From a virus (taxonomy: Duplodnaviria > Heunggongvirae > Uroviricota > Caudoviricetes): a DNA stretch of 13,854 bases. Shown here in pieces: positions 1-12,212 of this stretch. Location: the IMG/VR virus record IMGVR_UViG_2585427748_000003; one strand, 5' to 3'. Each line of letters opens with the position of its first letter. Positions within the stretch are counted from its first letter, which is position 1. The notes beneath the pieces were generated by a model. It saw nothing but the letters and a program-made list of their open reading frames with translations. It was not told the origin of the DNA and ran no database searches. A program made the position numbers and the translations under genes.

Positions 1-747
1 GACTGGCTGAAGAAAGAGATACAGCGCGTATACGATGAAAATCACAAGGTATACGGTGTGCGTAAAGTCTGGCGTCAGTTGTTACGGGAAGGTATCAGAG
101 TGGCCAGATGCACTGTGGCACGTCTCATGGCGGTTATGGGACTTGCCGGTGTTCTCCGGGGTAAAAAGGTCCGTACGACCATCAGCCGGAAAGCCGTTGC
201 CGCAGGCGACCGCGTAAACCGTCAGTTCGTGGCAGAACGACCTGACCAGCTGTGGGTGGCTGATTTTACTTACGTCAGCACATGGCAGGGCTTCGTCTAT
301 GTGGCGTTCATCATTGATGTGTTTGCCGGATACATTGTGGGGTGGCGGGTCTCATCGTCCATGGAGACGACATTCGTGCTGGATGCACTGGAGCAGGCGT
401 TATGGGCCCGTCGACCGTCCGGCACGGTCCATCACAGTGATAAAGGTTCTCAGTATGTATCGCTGGCCTACACACAGCGGCTTAAGGAAGCCGGATTACT
501 GGCATCAACAGGAAGTACAGGCGACTCGTATGACAACGCGATGGCGGAGAGCATCAATGGTCTTTACAAAGCGGAGGTAATACACCGTAAGAGCTGGAAA
601 AACCGTGCAGAAGTGGAACTGGCCACACTCACGTGGGTGGACTGGTATAACAATCGACGATTGCTGGAAAGGCTGGGCCATACTCCTCCGGCAGAAGCAG
701 AAAAAGCTTATTATGCTTCCATCGGAAACGATGATCTGGCAGCCTGA
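1..747 (+). CDS. IS3-family transposase OrfB (DDE integrase core), 5'-partial at window edge
   Basis: Frame 1 translates from base 1 as DWLKKEIQRVYDENHKVYGVRKVWRQLLREG... (the track's ORF 58-747 is the same frame from an internal GTG). DDE-type signatures are present: WVADFTYV, HHSDKGSQY, ESINGLYKAE. Confidence 0.85.
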   Translation, partial: DWLKKEIQRVYDENHKVYGVRKVWRQLLREGIRVARCTVARLMAVMGLAGVLRGKKVRTTISRKAVAAGDRVNRQFVAERPDQLWVADFTYVSTWQGFVYVAFIIDVFAGYIVGWRVSSSMETTFVLDALEQALWARRPSGTVHHSDKGSQYVSLAYTQRLKEAGLLASTGSTGDSYDNAMAESINGLYKAEVIHRKSWKNRAEVELATLTWVDWYNNRRLLERLGHTPPAEAEKAYYASIGNDDLAA

Positions 748-3128: not shown

Positions 3129-3284
3129 TTACTCCTCAGGTTCGTAAGCTGTGAAGACAGCGACCTCCGTCTGGCCGGTTCGGATTCGTACCTCGCAGAG
3201 GTCTTTCCTCGTTACCAGTGCCGTCACAATGACGGTTAAACAGATGACGATCAGGGCGATTAGCATCGCCTTTTGCTGCTTCAT
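3129..3284 (-). CDS. hok: Hok/Gef-family type I toxin (small membrane peptide, 51 aa)
   Basis: Translation MKQQKAMLIALIVICLTVIVTALVTRKDLCEVRIRTGQTEVAVFTAYEPEE has the Hok/Gef hallmark (hydrophobic helix followed by conserved ..RKxLCEVxIRxGxxEVAxFxAYE..). AAGGAG SD 9 nt upstream. An in-frame upstream ATG at 3341 gives the track's 70-aa frame; whether that is a mok-like reading frame I cannot tell. Confidence 0.8.
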   Translation of the reverse strand: MKQQKAMLIALIVICLTVIVTALVTRKDLCEVRIRTGQTEVAVFTAYEPEE

Positions 3285-3329
3285 AGCCTGCTTCTCCTTG
3301 CCTTTCGGCACGTAAGAGGCTAACCTACG

Positions 3330-3400
3330 TGTGTAGAGCATAGATATGGCCTCAGATTAATGTTAAGCGTCTTGCCGGACGCGTAATGTTAACTGGGGCT
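3330..3400 (+). ncRNA. sok: Predicted Sok-like antisense RNA opposite the hok leader/upstream start region (approximate)
   Basis: By analogy with hok/sok loci only. Candidate plus-strand promoter TTGCCT (3298-3303), 17-bp spacer, TAACCT (3321-3326). No clear terminator found; boundaries are guesses. Confidence 0.2.
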
Positions 3401-3575
3401 TTTCTCTATCTGCCTTTTGGTGTTCATGCCTGAGACAGATAGCCTCAAGCACCCGCTGCAATTCTACTTAACTCTCCTTTTCCCGCAAACCGTTTTTATC
3501 CCCAGCGGCAAATCGAATACACCACCAGCGCCACCGCCATCGCAATTCCTACCGTTGTTAATGCTTCAGGCCAGG

Positions 3576-7136: not shown

Positions 7137-7166
7137 ATATTAGGCTTAGCCTAATGAAATTGTCAA
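7137..7166 (-). promoter_or_regulatory. pR-like sigma-70 promoter for the ydaS/ydaT/replication operon
   Basis: Minus strand: -35 TTGACA (plus 7161-7166), 18-bp spacer, -10 TAATAT (plus 7137-7142). Operator A overlaps the spacer/-10 and operator B abuts the -35. Confidence 0.6.
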
Positions 7167-7204
7167 TAGGCTATGCCTAATACATCGAGAGTAGGGATTG
7201 CCTA
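7141..7204. promoter_or_regulatory. OR-like operator cluster: three 13-bp palindromes TAGGC-N3-GCCTA
   Basis: Sites at 7141-7153 (TAGGCttaGCCTA), 7167-7179 (TAGGCtatGCCTA) and 7192-7204 (TAGGGattGCCTA), spaced 25-26 bp centre to centre, in the racR/ydaS divergent intergenic region. Confidence 0.65.
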
Positions 7205-7233
7205 ACGCGATGCGCATAGGAGACTATTAAGCA

Positions 7234-7786: not shown

Positions 7787-7843
7787 TAGGTTGCGCCCAA
7801 ATTATTAGGCATAGCCTATTGACAAGTAATTAGGCATTTCCTA
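7787..7843. promoter_or_regulatory. OL-like operator cluster: three further TAGGC-N3-GCCTA-type sites
   Basis: Sites at 7806-7818 (TAGGCataGCCTA), 7831-7843 (TAGGCattTCCTA) and a degenerate one at 7787-7799 (TAGGTtgcGCCCA); they overlap the pL-like promoter. Confidence 0.6.
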
Positions 7844-7847
7844 TAGT
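7819..7847 (+). promoter_or_regulatory. pL-like sigma-70 promoter driving the operon that ends in xis-int
   Basis: -35 TTGACA (7819-7824), 17-bp spacer, -10 TATAGT (7842-7847). The 12-mer GCCTATTGACAA is shared with the pR-like promoter on the other strand. Confidence 0.7.
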
Positions 7848-8028: not shown

Positions 8029-8181
8029 ATGGATACTATCGAGCTTGGCAACAACGAATCTCTGGTATGCGGCGTGTTTCCCAACCAGGACGGCACGTTT
8101 ACCGCGATGACATATACCAGAAGCAAAACGTTTAAAACTGAAGCTGGCGCACGTCGCTGGTTAACCAGAAACACTGACTGA
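8029..8181 (+). CDS. ydaF: YdaF-like small protein (50 aa)
   Basis: MDTIELGNNESLVCGVFPNQDGTFTAMTYTRSKTFKTEAGARRWLTRNTD with GAGG SD 5 nt upstream; first gene after pL. A longer in-frame start at 7948 is possible. Name from remembered similarity to K-12 Rac ydaF. Confidence 0.5.
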   Translation: MDTIELGNNESLVCGVFPNQDGTFTAMTYTRSKTFKTEAGARRWLTRNTD

Positions 8182-8513
8182 TGAGGTTGACGATGGAATT
8201 TAAAGATTTACCAGTCCCATTCCAGGAAATGGCATCGAATGTGGTTCGCTCTCAACTGGCGACTCTTGACCTGAGTACCGTAGAAAAAGAAACCATCGAC
8301 AATATATCCGGTAACGTACGCCGAGCCTTTATCGGGCTGTACGAAGAGAAGCAGCTCTCTGATAACCAGGATTTACATGAAAAATACTTCCTGGATCTAA
8401 TGGACATCATTGATAAGGGGTTTGGCTTGTTAATGAAAAAGAAAGGGATTCGAATAGAACCCCTTGAAAATTACTTTGCAACAAAAAGCATTAATTCTTT
8501 TGATTCAAAATAA
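8181..8513 (+). CDS. Hypothetical acidic protein (110 aa; 106 aa if started at ATG 8193)
   Basis: Start overlaps the ydaF-like stop (TGATG); GAGG SD before the second ATG; AT-rich codon usage unlike the flanking genes. Confidence 0.5.
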   Translation: MRLTMEFKDLPVPFQEMASNVVRSQLATLDLSTVEKETIDNISGNVRRAFIGLYEEKQLSDNQDLHEKYFLDLMDIIDKGFGLLMKKKGIRIEPLENYFATKSINSFDSK

Positions 8514-8766
8514 GAGAATTAATTACAGACTTAACATGCTCTTTCTCATGATTGAAGCTCTCATGATTGAAAGTGCCGGGTTGAAGCGAGTCGATATAAT
8601 CAACAAGACTCTGTCGTACGACTTCATTTTTATCCATAACAGATGCAAGAAATGAAATTGCTAAAAGAGTTATATCACTACGCGCCGCAGCATGTTGCAA
8701 TGCTTTATCAAAATTATTAATCTGGCGTATCAGGGAGTTAATGATTTCATCATTTTCAGTCGACAT
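8491..8766 (-). CDS. Hypothetical protein (91 aa), convergent with and overlapping the 110-aa gene by 23 bp
   Basis: ATG at 8766 (MSTENDEIINSLIRQ..) with strong AGGAGG SD 6 nt upstream. The track's 162-aa version starts at a TTG and has an arginine-rich N-terminus that looks non-coding. Confidence 0.5.
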   Translation of the reverse strand: MSTENDEIINSLIRQINNFDKALQHAAARSDITLLAISFLASVMDKNEVVRQSLVDYIDSLQPGTFNHESFNHEKEHVKSVINSLILNQKN

Positions 8767-9039
8767 TTCACCCTCCTGAGGGTTGGTGATTAAGGAGTTC
8801 TCCACGGGTGAGGTGGAGTGCGTGCGCCGGACACGGGTGAGCATCCGGCACTGACAGTTTACTGAAAGGATATTTCCCTGAAAAGTCAGACCATAACGCG
8901 AAAGCGCACGGCGAGGTAGCTGGTTCATAGATAGCCTGTCGTTAAATTTTCGTCGACCGTGCGCTTCCGGTTGTGGCAATCCGCGAAATGGCGCGGCGGT
9001 AAGTATGGCGGGGTTATTCCTTCCCCCGTTGAGGACACC

Positions 9040-9076: not shown

Positions 9077-9328
9077 CGCTGCAACGCCCTCTGTTATCAA
9101 TTTTCTGGTGACGTTTGGCGGTATCAGTTTTACTCCGTGACTGCTCTGCCGCCCTTTTTAAAGTGAATTTTGTGATGTGGTGAATGCGGCTGAGCGCACG
9201 CGGAACAGTTAAAACCAAAAACAGTGTTATGGGTGGATTCTCTGTATCCGGCGTTAATTGTTAACTGGTTAACGTCACCTGGAGGCACCAGGCACCGCAT
9301 CACAAAATTCATTGTTGAGGACGCGATA

Positions 9329-9517
9329 ATGGAAACGTTATTACCAAACGTTAATACGTCTGAAGGTTGTTTTGAAATTGGTGTCAATATCAGTAACCCT
9401 GTATTTACTGAAGATGCCATTAACAAGAGAAAACACGAACGGGAGCTATTAAATAAAATATGCATTCTTTCAATGCTGGCCCGTTTACGTCCGATACAAA
9501 AAGGATGCTGGCAATGA
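9329..9517 (+). CDS. Hypothetical small protein (62 aa)
   Basis: METLLPNVNTSEGCFEIGVNISNPVF..; GAGGA SD 8 nt upstream; its stop overlaps the next start (ATGA). Confidence 0.5.
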   Translation: METLLPNVNTSEGCFEIGVNISNPVFTEDAINKRKHERELLNKICILSMLARLRPIQKGCWQ

Positions 9518-9705
9518 ATACAGCATTTGCACTTGTTCTGACAGTTTTTCTTGTTTCCGGAGAGCCAGTTGATATTGCAGTCAGTGTTCACAGGACAATG
9601 CAGGAGTGTGTGACTGCAGCAACCGAACAGAAAATTCCCGGTAACTGTTACCCGGTCGATAAAGTTATTCACCAGGATAATAACGAAATCCCGGCAGGTC
9701 TTTAA
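9514..9705 (+). CDS. Small exported or membrane-anchored protein (63 aa)
   Basis: MNTAFALVLTVFLVSGEPVD.. has a signal-peptide-like hydrophobic N-terminus; AAGGA SD 8 nt upstream of ATG 9514. Confidence 0.55.
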   Translation: MNTAFALVLTVFLVSGEPVDIAVSVHRTMQECVTAATEQKIPGNCYPVDKVIHQDNNEIPAGL

Positions 9706-9797: not shown

Positions 9798-12212
9798 ATG
9801 AGTAAAGTCTTTATTTGCGCCGCCATTCCGGACGAACAGGCAATAAAGGAAGAAGGTGCCGTCGCTGTAGCCACTGCCATTGAAGCCGGTGATGAACGTC
9901 GCGCCCGCGCAAAATTTCACTGGCAATTCCTGGAACATTATCCGGCTGCTCAGGACTGCGCTTATAAATTTCTTGTCTGCGAGGATAAACCCGGTATACC
10001 CCGCCCTGCCCTCGATTCCTGGGATGCTGAATATATGCAGGAAAACCGCTGGGATGAGGAGTCTGCTTCCTTTGTCCCGGTTGAGACTGAATCCGATCCG
10101 ATGAACGTCACTTTTGACAAGCTGGCCCCTGAAGTACAGAACGCTGTCATGGTTAAGTTCGACACATGTGAAAACATCACCGTTGATATGGTTATTAGCG
10201 CACAGGAATTGTTGCAGGAAGACATGGCAACATTCGACGGACATATCGTTGAAGCGTTGATGAAAATGCCAGATGTTAACGCCATGTATCCGGAGCTTAA
10301 GCTGCATGCCATCGGGTGGGTTAAGCATAAATGTAAGCCTGGTGCCAAATGGCCCGAAATTCAGGCAGAGATGCGCATCTGGAAAAAACGTCGCGAAGGT
10401 GAACGCAAGGAAACCGGAAAATACACGTCTGTTGTTGATCTCGCCCGCGCCAGAGTCAATCAACAGCACACTGAAAATTCAACAGGAAAAATCAGCCTGG
10501 TCATTGCTGCCATTCATCGCGAATACAAGCAGACATGGAAAACACTGGATGACGAACTGGCCTACGCTCTCTGGCCTGGTGATGTGGATGCCGGAAACAT
10601 TGACGGCAGCATCCATCGCTGGGCAAAAAATGAAGTTATCGACAACGACCGCGAAGACTGGAAGCGTATCTCGGCATCAATGCGCAAACAGCCTGATGCC
10701 CTTCGCTACGACCGCCAGACTATTTTTGGCCTTGTCCGTGAACGTCCGATCGACATTCACAAAGACCCTGTGGCACTGAACAAATACATTACTGAATACC
10801 TGACTACAAAGGGCGTGTTTGAAGATGAAGGAAGAAATCAGAGCGCAACTGATACTCTCTCGTCGCCAGTACCAGAAACTGATGCAGTGGAAACGGCAAT
10901 TCCGGACAACGAAAAAACCGAATGCAAAGTGGAAGTCGAACCATCTGTAGAGCGTGAGGGGCCGTTCTACTTCCTCTTCACCGACAAGGATGGCGAAAAA
11001 TACGGTCGCGCAAACAAACTTTCTGGTCTGGATAAGGCACTGGCTGCCGGGGCTACTGAAATCACGAAAGAAGAATATTTCGCCCACAAAAACGGTACAT
11101 ACTCAGGTTCACAACAAAATACTGGTGCATCTGACACGACCGCACAACCAGGGCCGGTAAAAGTTACCGCTGACGAAGTAAACAAAATTATGCAGGCAGC
11201 CAATATCAGCCAGCCTGACGCCGATAAGTTGCTTGCTGCCTCTCGCGGAGAATTTGTTGCAGGGATTAGCGACCCGAATGATCCGAAATGGGTTAAGGGG
11301 ATCCAGACCCGCGATTCTGTAAACCAGAACCAGCATGAATCGGAACGGAACTACCAAAAAGCGGAACAAAACAGCCCAAATGCGTTACAAAACGAGCCAG
11401 AAACGAAACAGCCTGAACCAGTGGCGCAACAGGAAGTGGAAAAAGTCTGCACCGCCTGCGGTCAGACCGGCGGCGGCAATTGCCCTGATTGTGGCGCGGT
11501 GATGGGCGACGCAACATACCAGGAAACATTCGATGAAGAGTATCAGGTTGAAGTTCAGGAAGATGATCCGGAGGAAATGGAAGGCGCTGAACATCCACAC
11601 AAGGAGAACACTGGCGGCAATCAGCATCACGATAGCGATAATGAAACTGGCGAGACGGCAAATCACTCAATTAAGGTGAACAGTCATCACGTAATCACAT
11701 CCACCAGCAGGACGTGTGACCATCTAATGATAGACCTTGAAACCATGGGAAAAAATCCTGATGCCCCGATCATCTCAATAGGTGCAATATTTTTCGATCC
11801 GCAAACCGGAGATATGGGACCGGAATTTAGTAAGACTATCGATCTGGAAACTGCTGGCGGAGTCATTGATCGGGACACCATTAAATGGTGGCTTAAGCAA
11901 TCACGCGAAGCGCAATCTGCCATTATGACCGATGAAATCCCGTTAGATGATGCACTGTTACAATTGCGGGAATTTATCGACGAAAACTCCGGTGAATTTT
12001 TTGTTCAGGTCTGGGGAAATGGAGCCAACTTCGACAACACGATTTTGCGCCGTTCATACGAACGGCAGGGGATCCCCTGCCCGTGGCGTTACTACAACGA
12101 TCGCGATGTACGCACAATCGTTGAGCTGGGGAAAGCCATAGACTTCGATGCCAGAACGGCTATTCCATTCGAAGGTGAGCGCCATAATGCACTTGATGAC
12201 GCCCGTTACTAG
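9798..12212 (+). CDS. RecE/exodeoxyribonuclease VIII-like protein with a C-terminal DnaQ-like DEDDh 3'-5' exonuclease domain (about residues 644-804); ends at an in-frame TAG
   Basis: 804-aa ORF, GAGG SD 9 nt upstream, placed immediately upstream of xis-int as recE/exo is in lambdoid prophages. C-terminal motifs LMIDLETMG (Exo I), VWGNGANFDNT (Exo II), HNALDDARY (Exo III); Cys4 zinc-ribbon-like CTACGQTGGGNCPDCG in the linker. The RecE-like assignment of the N-terminal/linker region is from memory. Confidence 0.8.
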   Translation: MSKVFICAAIPDEQAIKEEGAVAVATAIEAGDERRARAKFHWQFLEHYPAAQDCAYKFLVCEDKPGIPRPALDSWDAEYMQENRWDEESASFVPVETESDPMNVTFDKLAPEVQNAVMVKFDTCENITVDMVISAQELLQEDMATFDGHIVEALMKMPDVNAMYPELKLHAIGWVKHKCKPGAKWPEIQAEMRIWKKRREGERKETGKYTSVVDLARARVNQQHTENSTGKISLVIAAIHREYKQTWKTLDDELAYALWPGDVDAGNIDGSIHRWAKNEVIDNDREDWKRISASMRKQPDALRYDRQTIFGLVRERPIDIHKDPVALNKYITEYLTTKGVFEDEGRNQSATDTLSSPVPETDAVETAIPDNEKTECKVEVEPSVEREGPFYFLFTDKDGEKYGRANKLSGLDKALAAGATEITKEEYFAHKNGTYSGSQQNTGASDTTAQPGPVKVTADEVNKIMQAANISQPDADKLLAASRGEFVAGISDPNDPKWVKGIQTRDSVNQNQHESERNYQKAEQNSPNALQNEPETKQPEPVAQQEVEKVCTACGQTGGGNCPDCGAVMGDATYQETFDEEYQVEVQEDDPEEMEGAEHPHKENTGGNQHHDSDNETGETANHSIKVNSHHVITSTSRTCDHLMIDLETMGKNPDAPIISIGAIFFDPQTGDMGPEFSKTIDLETAGGVIDRDTIKWWLKQSREAQSAIMTDEIPLDDALLQLREFIDENSGEFFVQVWGNGANFDNTILRRSYERQGIPCPWRYYNDRDVRTIVELGKAIDFDARTAIPFEGERHNALDDARY

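Follow-up and report, generated by a model that had tools for sequence, protein, structure and literature searches.

A reverse-oriented gene cassette and its convergent, modular neighbour in the early-left operon of a Rac/Qin-type prophage

Why should a prophage keep a gene that faces its own early transcription, and is the early gene into which that gene runs a partner or only a neighbour? The question is raised by a stretch of 13,854 nucleotides (the window) from a virus of the Caudoviricetes, IMG/VR record IMGVR_UViG_2585427748_000003, in which a gene on the plus strand and a gene on the minus strand (referred to here as the plus gene and the minus gene) converge and overlap at their 3' ends. 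The pair is a variant of the reverse-oriented accessory genes that prophages carry in their early-left operon. Because it lies in exactly the slot in which phage lambda and the Rac prophage keep sieB, the minus gene, together with its signals, is a candidate for a new exclusion or control function and not for a common structural or early one. The elements of the pair, with the evidence for each, are the following.

8193..8351, plus strand: N-module of the plus gene, residues 1-53, a helical hairpin (alignment, PHROG, AlphaFold2 [AF2] model)
8352..8513, plus strand: AT-rich, swappable C-module of the plus gene, residues 54-106, called Ca (alternative C-modules in relatives; G+C content 0.327)
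8491..8766, minus strand: the minus gene, encoding a 91-aa acidic three-helix protein, a divergent member of phrog_18692 (family searches, AF2 model, substitution rates)
8767..8851, minus strand: structured 5' leader of the minus gene (kept in the copies of lambdoid and P2-like prophages, Salmonella and the island)
8856..8884, minus strand: candidate promoter for the minus gene, weak (TTTTCA-17-TAAACT; own scan, 8/12, and alignment)
8433..8465, minus strand: intrinsic-terminator-like 9-bp hairpin and U-run, inside the plus coding sequence, 26 nt after the minus stop codon (scan and fold)

The gene pair and its protein families

Both open reading frames (ORFs) are genuine protein-coding genes under purifying selection, since their ratios of nonsynonymous to synonymous substitution rates (dN/dS) lie between 0.21 and 0.28. 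The ratio is 0.28 for the minus gene when compared with a copy diverged by 16% and 0.26 for the plus gene when compared with a copy diverged by 7%, both copies being metagenomic; the homologous pair of E. coli and Salmonella gives 0.25 for the minus gene and 0.21 for the plus gene. When the 586-nt region was simulated 5000 times with a first-order Markov model, ATG-initiated ORFs of at least 91 aa appeared on both strands in 0.06% of the runs. An earlier note on this DNA, made from its letters, had described a 23-bp overlap in an AT-rich segment. The overlap of the coding sequences is indeed found at 8491-8513, and the C-module of the plus gene (G+C content 0.327) and the minus gene (0.348) form the most AT-rich part of the neighbourhood, as compared with 0.459 in the N-module, 0.549 in the stretch of the leader and the small RNA (sRNA) gene dicF, and 0.475 in the whole window.

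The minus gene begins with an ATG at 8766 and ends with a stop codon at 8491-8493. The strong Shine-Dalgarno (SD) sequence to which the note had drawn attention, AGGAGG, is located at 8777-8772, 5 nt before the ATG, and the 91-aa product that it had proposed is a better reading than the one in RefSeq, where the NCBI Prokaryotic Genome Annotation Pipeline (PGAP) extends the gene to 8928, giving 145 aa with 54 extra N-terminal residues (WP_001351093.1). The 91-aa start is preferred because the DNA of the extension forms part of a structured leader and is conserved in phages that lack the gene, where it can be read only as a spurious ORF; on the same grounds the 145-aa reading and the 162-aa reading of the longest ORF were both rejected. 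For the plus gene, the note was right about the ORF (8181-8513) and wrong about the length of 110 aa. The true start is the ATG at 8193 and the product has 106 aa, because a GAGG is found 6 nt upstream, the sequence MEFKDLP forms the N-terminus in 231/231 plus-gene homologues, PGAP also begins the gene at 8193, and the DNA further upstream differs in loci in which ydfC, and not ydfA, precedes the gene. A start at 8181 was rejected.

Like the gene that encodes it, the plus protein is bipartite. The N-module is the invariant block of the alignment and is modelled by AF2 with a predicted local distance difference test (pLDDT) score of 80-90, while the model of the complete protein is helical (pLDDT 76) with a disordered tail over the overlap. 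Over its full length (residues 1-106) the protein matches phrog_6937 with an E value of 6e-67, and its residues 1-55/66 are common to phrog_1363, phrog_2151 and phrog_9419, which differ downstream. The last ~25 codons of Ca overlie the 3' end of the minus gene and its terminator.

The minus protein has an isoelectric point (pI) of 5.4, no transmembrane segment (its highest Kyte-Doolittle mean over 19 residues is 1.43) and an AF2 model of three helices (pLDDT 74). It is homologous to a 92-aa protein of E. coli, with 28% identity over the full length (BLASTP E 1e-5), and in the family alignment it shows 26-38% identity to the other subfamilies with the frame preserved. The direct match of the 91-aa protein to phrog_18692 is weak (E 0.022); 7/10 aligned members of the family match this PHROG, the best of them with an E value of 5e-62. 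By homology established through the 92-aa branch and profile searches, the 91-aa protein is placed as a divergent branch of phrog_18692. The family is small: 38 clusters of it were found in a set of 5.8 billion proteins, and 20 representatives in one of 1.8 billion. The 91-aa gene itself is present at full length in 198/5426 complete E. coli genomes. Distant members are found in a Rac-like prophage of Salmonella (93 aa), in two contigs of lambdoid type and two P2-like prophages, and in an integrase island. Every phage-borne copy opposes an early operon beside the immunity region; the sole solo copy is that of the non-phage island, beside the integrase, where there is no lytic cycle to protect. 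Small ORFs of 55-58 aa, absent from the gene calls, run across the 3' end of the minus-family gene in two lambdoid metagenomic contigs (L095, 488-664, and L101, 739-906, both on the minus strand). These ORFs share EASIL(D/E)YLxxEIxxTQ(L/I)S, and the L101 copy would be the first ORF after a pL-like promoter.

The note had seen no recognizable motif in either protein, and database searches bear this out. Sequence searches of Pfam, NCBIfam, PADLOC and the PDB gave nothing usable for the two proteins, the alternative partners or the alternative cargo of the cassette. Foldseek comparison of the AF2 models (pLDDT 74 and 76) with the PDB and BFVD returned generic helical bundles only, all with E > 0.4. 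In PADLOC 2.0 the plus protein had no match and the minus protein matched only BrxA (E 0.014, 12.7 bits), which we judged to be noise. A literature search by RefSeq accession found no match, and the literature on sieB hot-spots or kilS held nothing specific. As there is no match in Pfam, NCBIfam, PADLOC, the PDB or any fold family, we can only infer what the two proteins do.

Translation and termination signals of the cassette

Judged from its sequence, the minus gene is a self-contained, reverse-oriented cassette that has translation signals of its own as well as a structured leader and a terminator. Three helices make up the leader. H1 (8851-8841 with 8834-8824) contains invariant U.G and G.U pairs, H2 (8818-8813 with 8805-8800) shows compensatory changes at two pairs, and H3, in which an anti-SD (8797-8793) pairs with the SD (8777-8773), shows one compensatory AU/UA swap. 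In the proposed register 98% of the cells are paired, versus 31-50% in slid registers. The leader is assigned to the RNA of the minus gene because its wobble pairs would not match on the opposite strand. With six sequences compared, the evidence for this structure is good but not conclusive. Conservation extends further than the helices: ~230 nt upstream of the minus gene are conserved between the window and one P2-like prophage, and the proximal ~85 nt of the leader are also kept in a second P2-like prophage and in the island. A weak, putative promoter of the minus gene is suggested at 8884-8856, where three lineages have a -10-like hexamer 5-7 nt upstream of H1 (TAAACT; TAAGCT in L046/L093; TGtTATTAT in the P2-like contig L100).

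At the other end of the cassette, the terminator hairpin has a folding energy of -14 kcal/mol (z -3.4), and no U-run accompanies it on the plus strand. One terminator match in the window is not significant by itself, 1.7 being expected, and the call gains weight because equivalent hairpins recur at the same place, 20-33 nt after the stop codon, in three other contexts, namely L100 and L096 (both P2-like) and the lambdoid contig L101. Such hairpins are therefore found in 4/7 contexts; with a chance of ~3% each by rough estimate, four are unlikely to have arisen by chance. When the terminator is read on the plus strand, its A-run becomes Lys codons and its GC stem Gly/Pro codons, so that it encodes M-K-K-K-G-x4-P-L. 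The partner motif M-K-(K/M)-K-G-x4-P-L, also present in L100 and L096, exists because it is the antisense image of the terminator: here an RNA element of the other strand imposes 'conservation' on a protein.

The overlap of the two coding sequences is probably incidental, the partner ORF simply running over the 3' end of the cassette and its terminator. In other loci this C-module faces an unrelated 73-aa gene or lacks a minus gene opposite it. Another candidate origin for the 23-bp overlap, a simple insertion that truncated a 124-aa ancestor, is weakened by the presence of the same tail motif in all partner proteins.

An exchangeable slot in a dicBF-type operon

The minus gene and its neighbour are surrounded by the following elements.

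7138..7205, no strand assigned: operator-like palindromes of the TTAGGCnTAGCCTA type, OR-like, between racR and the cro-like ydaS gene (repeat search)
7803..7847, plus strand: early-left promoter, TTGACA-17-TATAGT at 7819-7847, an analogue of pL and dicBp (promoter scan, 11/12)
8029..8181, plus strand: DUF1391 gene of ydfA/ydaF type, 51 aa (Pfam PF07151, E 9e-28; PGAP)
8891..8977, plus strand: long conserved stem of the early transcript, 8891-8909 with 8959-8977 (compensatory changes)
9103..9154, plus strand: DicF sRNA (Rfam RF00039, 76.7 bits)
9329..9517, plus strand: dicB, a cell-division inhibitor gene (PGAP annotation of the identical locus; translation)
9514-9705, plus strand: ydfD, directly after dicB (PGAP)

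From the PGAP gene order, the Rfam match to DicF and the Pfam matches of the flanking genes, the window is a Rac/Qin-type lambdoid prophage adjoining ompW, with the gene pair in its early-left arm. About 1.2 kb round the pair is 100% identical to chromosomal prophages in several E. coli strains. At the identical locus PGAP annotates YdaT, a cro-like helix-turn-helix protein, the RacR repressor, a DUF1391 protein, two hypothetical proteins, DicB, a DUF1482 protein (YdfD), an exonuclease, an excisionase and an integrase, followed by ompW; the identities of the flanking genes were confirmed by Pfam. The early-left operon has the order racR, ydfA, plus gene, DicF, dicB, ydfD, exonuclease, xis and int, and contains no N gene. 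The palindrome TTAGGCnTAGCCTA is present in three copies in the divergent region between racR and ydaS and in two copies, at 7803-7822 and 7828-7844, that overlap the early-left promoter, and a 23-nt perfect inverted copy (7160-7182 and 7803-7825) comprises the operator and the -35 hexamer. Lambdoid immunity regions have their OL and OR operators arranged in this way, which places the plus gene in a repressor-controlled early-left operon. The pL operon of the earlier note is thus upheld as an early-left operon with an operator-overlapped promoter, although its type is that of the Rac/Qin dicBF operons, without N. The minus gene is oriented against the promoter at 7819-7847 and does oppose early-left transcription, as the note had said.

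Close parallels to this locus come from three sources. The Qin dicBF operon (ydfA-ydfB-ydfC-dicF-dicB-ydfD) has the same skeleton and the same DicF, dicB and ydfD, as well as a repressor-controlled promoter upstream of ydfA and a conserved RNase III stem upstream of DicF; it differs in that here the plus gene and the reverse cassette replace ydfB/ydfC and the repressor is of the RacR type. In Qin of E. coli K-12 the equivalent transcript begins upstream of ydfA, and processing through RNase III and RNase E yields DicF (10.1101/2023.04.14.536235). The stem at 8891-8977 lies at the reported RNase III site that gives the 190-nt DicF precursor (processing: 10.1101/2023.04.14.536235). In the Salmonella prophage L093 the stem has U.G pairs in the plus sense that would be C.A on the other strand, and it pairs better on the strand of the early operon. 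Taken with the leader, which pairs in the opposite sense, this suggests that both reading directions of the region are of use. The stem is also kept in the P2-like contig L100, in whose available sequence no DicF was seen.

Rac of K-12 provides the second parallel. Its order is racR, ydaG and ydaF (DUF1391), followed by sieB, which converges on ydaF and shares 4 bp with it at the 3' ends, and then by the sRNA KilS and the FtsZ inhibitor KilR. The skeleton is the same as here, with DicF and DicB standing where KilS and KilR do, and the minus gene occupies the sieB slot between the DUF1391 gene and the pair of sRNA and FtsZ inhibitor, an equivalence of position only. In lambda, sieB (PF14163) lies downstream of N, whose stop codon it abuts, and upstream of ral, and it opposes pL. 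The minus gene opposes pL-type transcription as sieB does in both Rac and lambda, and in the sieB loci, as in the minus gene, the 3' end abuts or overlaps a neighbouring early gene. When the earlier note assigned the pair to a superinfection-exclusion slot, it was therefore correct by position. The leader of the 93-aa Salmonella gene shares sequence blocks with the leader of Rac sieB. In the same Rac-like prophage (L093, 2700-2790) a sequence similar to the KilS region of Rac K-12 stands in place of DicF; the terminator and adjacent blocks of L093 can be aligned to what lies upstream of sieB in Rac, and no Rfam model detects the KilS-like sequence.

Likeness of position does not extend to the proteins. 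SieB is expressed from the prophage and aborts superinfecting relatives but not its own phage (PMC10883804). The SieB family PF14163 gave no Pfam match at E<=1 for either the 91-aa or the 162-aa reading of the minus gene, in a search that returned lambda SieB with 1e-29 and Rac SieB with 1.5e-31. SieB proteins have 160-190 aa, are basic and carry hydrophobic N-terminal segments, whereas the minus protein has 91 aa, is acidic and is predicted to be soluble; the Kyte-Doolittle maximum and pI of lambda SieB are 1.73 and 9.3, versus 1.43 and 5.4. Furthermore, the escape factor of SieB is an in-frame internal product, whereas any escape factor here would be a separate convergent gene. By these comparisons of profile and composition, the minus protein is not a SieB.

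The third parallel is a general one. Lambdoid 'morons' are accessory units that are transcribed autonomously, each with its own terminator and a deviant base composition. Like them, the cassette is present in some and absent from others of a set of close relatives, is AT-rich, has its own terminator and translation signals and holds interchangeable cargo behind a common leader. Unlike them, it lies antisense inside an early operon, overlaps the coding sequence of its neighbour, has a promoter that is only a candidate and carries a conserved structured leader common to P2-like prophages.

The slot between ydfA and DicF is variable. In related phages it contains ydfB and ydfC, a 118-aa gene and ydfC, or, in mEp460, a convergent overlapping pair of a 121-aa plus gene and a 66-aa gene. 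A census of 89 loci with the plus N-module, drawn from IMG/VR and other sources, gave these pairings:

133-aa plus form with an intact 92-aa minus gene: 34 loci
133-aa plus form with a truncated 92-aa minus gene: 6 loci
106/109-aa plus form with the 91-aa minus gene: 24 loci
124-aa plus form with an unrelated 73-aa minus gene: 5 loci
124-aa plus form with no minus partner: 17 loci

No recombinants were present in the loci examined, the 133-aa form always being accompanied by the 92-aa gene and the 106/109-aa form by the 91-aa gene. A 19-nt context of SD and start is identical for the 91-, 92- and 73-aa minus genes, the variable block beginning exactly at the start codon, and its left edge falls inside the plus gene after residue ~53. 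In Salmonella, the alternative C-module Cb is a stand-alone 71-aa gene that converges with the 93-aa minus homologue, and in P2-like prophages a convergent overlap of 41-44 bp is kept downstream of cox. When a profile of Ca was compared with 2040 ORFs, the top non-self match was the C-terminus of the P2-like partner (E 8e-4), including residues outside the shadow of the terminator; a second iteration of this profile hidden Markov model recruited neither Cb nor the L096 partner.

Convergent overlapping pairs occur in the same slot in L004 (mEp460, 1703-2237), L010 (2501-3095) and L005 (2501-3086), with unrelated minus cargo of 66 aa (mEp460, plus gene of 121 aa), 100 aa (L010, plus gene of 122 aa) and 73 aa (L005), none of which has a family match. 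BLASTP found no similarity between the 73-aa cargo and the 91/92-aa family; leader and SD of the 73-aa gene are those of the 91-aa gene.

Elsewhere in the window, several other loci deserve mention. A hok/sok type I toxin-antitoxin locus is located at 3129-3454 on the minus strand (Rfam sok at 3279-3454, 117 bits; PGAP hokD in an identical genome). At 2046-2884, also on the minus strand, a 119-aa gene without a Pfam match, whose PGAP counterpart at the identical locus is a helix-turn-helix protein, is followed by a gene for a 158-aa protein with an M78 peptidase domain of IrrE/ImmA type. The two resemble a pair of repressor and antirepressor protease, and in strain E7476, whose genome is otherwise identical, IS1 adjoins their position. 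The exonuclease of 804 aa (9798-12212, plus strand) has a C-terminal Rv2179c-like 3'-5' exonuclease domain, not a RecE domain; it ends ~19 codons before the 823-aa form of related loci and may be truncated here. A fragment of an rve-family transposase of an insertion sequence (58-747, plus strand) lies within the prophage where the window begins on the left.

Possible roles of the cassette

The reading that we favour, and hold only tentatively, is that the minus gene encodes a factor of the exclusion or abortive-infection type that is expressed from the prophage, gated at translation and silenced by convergent early transcription, perhaps with a cognate partner module. In a simplified scheme, the operator-controlled early promoter would be off in the lysogen, and the cassette would be transcribed by itself with its translation gated by the leader. 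Firing of the early promoter would then shut the cassette through convergent transcription and a fully complementary antisense RNA, while the partner protein would be made. The minus protein would most likely serve the lysogen as an exclusion or abortive-infection-type factor and, by analogy with the logic of SieB and Esc, the cognate C-module of the partner could act as its neutraliser.

Several results weigh against this scheme. On the side of expression, a promoter tool found nothing at threshold between 8767 and 9237, the candidate at 8884-8856 (8/12) being below it; the covariation of the leader is drawn from only six sequences; and the terminator hairpin is absent in Cb-type alleles. On the side of function, the minus protein resembles neither SieB nor any defence protein in PADLOC, and comparison of folds gave no informative match. 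By tblastn, neither the 91-aa nor the 92-aa protein had a match in 50,697 deposited phage genomes, and the copies may therefore sit mostly in decaying prophages. As regards the partner, Ca is found with the unrelated 73-aa gene (5 loci) and without a minus gene (17 loci), and the similarity among partners (MKKKG...PL) is partly an antisense shadow of the terminator. BLASTP detected no similarity between the modules Ca, Cb and that of the P2-like partner, and their co-variation with the minus genes may therefore be plain linkage across the 3' overlap, which could by itself produce such a pattern because it leaves no room for recombination.

These last points lead to the alternative that has to be taken most seriously, although we consider it somewhat unlikely: the genes would be neighbours and independent of each other, the minus gene being an ordinary reverse moron, not necessarily defensive, the plus gene being an early accessory gene unrelated to it, and both overlap and co-variation being a result of tight packing, with no space between the genes where recombination might part them. 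Such independence would accommodate the occurrence of Ca with the 91-aa gene, with the 73-aa gene or alone, the unrelated convergent cargo of the same slot (121 + 66 aa in mEp460, 122 + 100 aa in L010), the lack of BLASTP homology among partner C-modules and the existence of a solo member of the minus family; Rac sieB, too, overlaps ydaF by 4 bp with no functional link known. It accounts less well for the pairing of Cb with the 92/93-aa gene, which is kept from E. coli to Salmonella even though Cb is part of a larger protein in E. coli and a gene by itself in Salmonella, for the recurrence of the convergent 41-44-bp overlap in P2-like prophages, and for the P2-like partner being the best non-self match of the Ca profile. 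The simplest alternative, that one or both ORFs are spurious, for example that the minus ORF is a chance frame in AT-rich DNA, has been largely refuted and is scarcely credible. Functional annotation is indeed missing everywhere, the minus family is very small (38 clusters in 5.8 billion proteins) and the PGAP start of the minus gene is clearly wrong, but dN/dS is well below 1 for both genes, the frame is kept at 26-38% identity in distant members, the AGGAGG is ideally spaced, the leader and terminator are conserved, and ORFs on both strands came about by chance in only 0.06% of simulations.

Two further accounts give the locus a function of another kind. It is quite improbable, in our estimation, that the cassette acts chiefly as RNA, its transcript (complementary to ~8435-8850) and the convergent polymerases damping leakage into dicF and dicB while the protein is secondary. 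The cassette does lie between the early promoter and DicF/dicB, DicF is toxic, as is DicB, a subpopulation of cells shows spontaneous firing of dicBp, the early transcript is already processed by RNase III, and the leader and the long stem show conservation and, on both strands, covariation. Against this stand the purifying selection on the protein (dN/dS 0.25-0.28), the strong SD with a helix dedicated to its sequestration, the many alleles, including that of Qin K-12, that do without the cassette, and its presence in P2-like prophages and the island, where Rfam found neither DicF nor any other family near the cassette in contigs that end close upstream. We attach little probability to a toxin-antitoxin or addiction module, in which one protein would be toxic and the other its antidote, stabilizing the prophage. 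Convergent type I toxin-antitoxin loci that overlap at their 3' ends do occur in prophages, and hok is an example of a translationally silent toxin mRNA; the two small co-varying genes with their convergent transcripts and the SD-sequestering leader are reminiscent of such systems, and the prophage already has hok/sok. Both partners here, however, are conserved proteins of 90-130 aa under selection, where a type I locus would pair a short hydrophobic toxin peptide with an antisense RNA that does not code; neither of them is a short hydrophobic peptide, neither has a DNA-binding domain or a known toxin or antitoxin domain, and each gene is found without the other. Nor does the pair resemble a type II system, as the genes are convergent rather than co-transcribed, Pfam and NCBIfam domains are lacking and the all-helical models have no fold match. 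The plus gene would be repressed in the lysogen and the minus gene would not, which fits neither classical toxin-antitoxin orientation.

If the favoured reading of a gated exclusion-type factor is correct, the cassettes would constitute a new compact family of prophage exclusion or control functions with an RNA gate and a self-escape partner. For annotation, RefSeq makes the minus gene too long (145 aa), and what has appeared as a 'conserved DicF upstream region' is in part the leader of a gene on the opposite strand. For the host, the 91-aa cassette is carried by ~4% of complete E. coli genomes, with related forms in Salmonella and in P2-like prophages. The sRNA and small protein of the dicBF operon affect division, metabolism and phage receptors, and because the cassette lies inside this operon it could change the behaviour of the operon in carrier strains. 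In its most complete form, which we regard as unlikely on present comparisons, the locus would represent a two-part exclusion system of lambdoid and P2-like phages, in which a gated three-helix effector is neutralized by antisense transcription and by its cognate C-module; if true, such a system would let the resident phage, but not its competitors, escape its own weapon.

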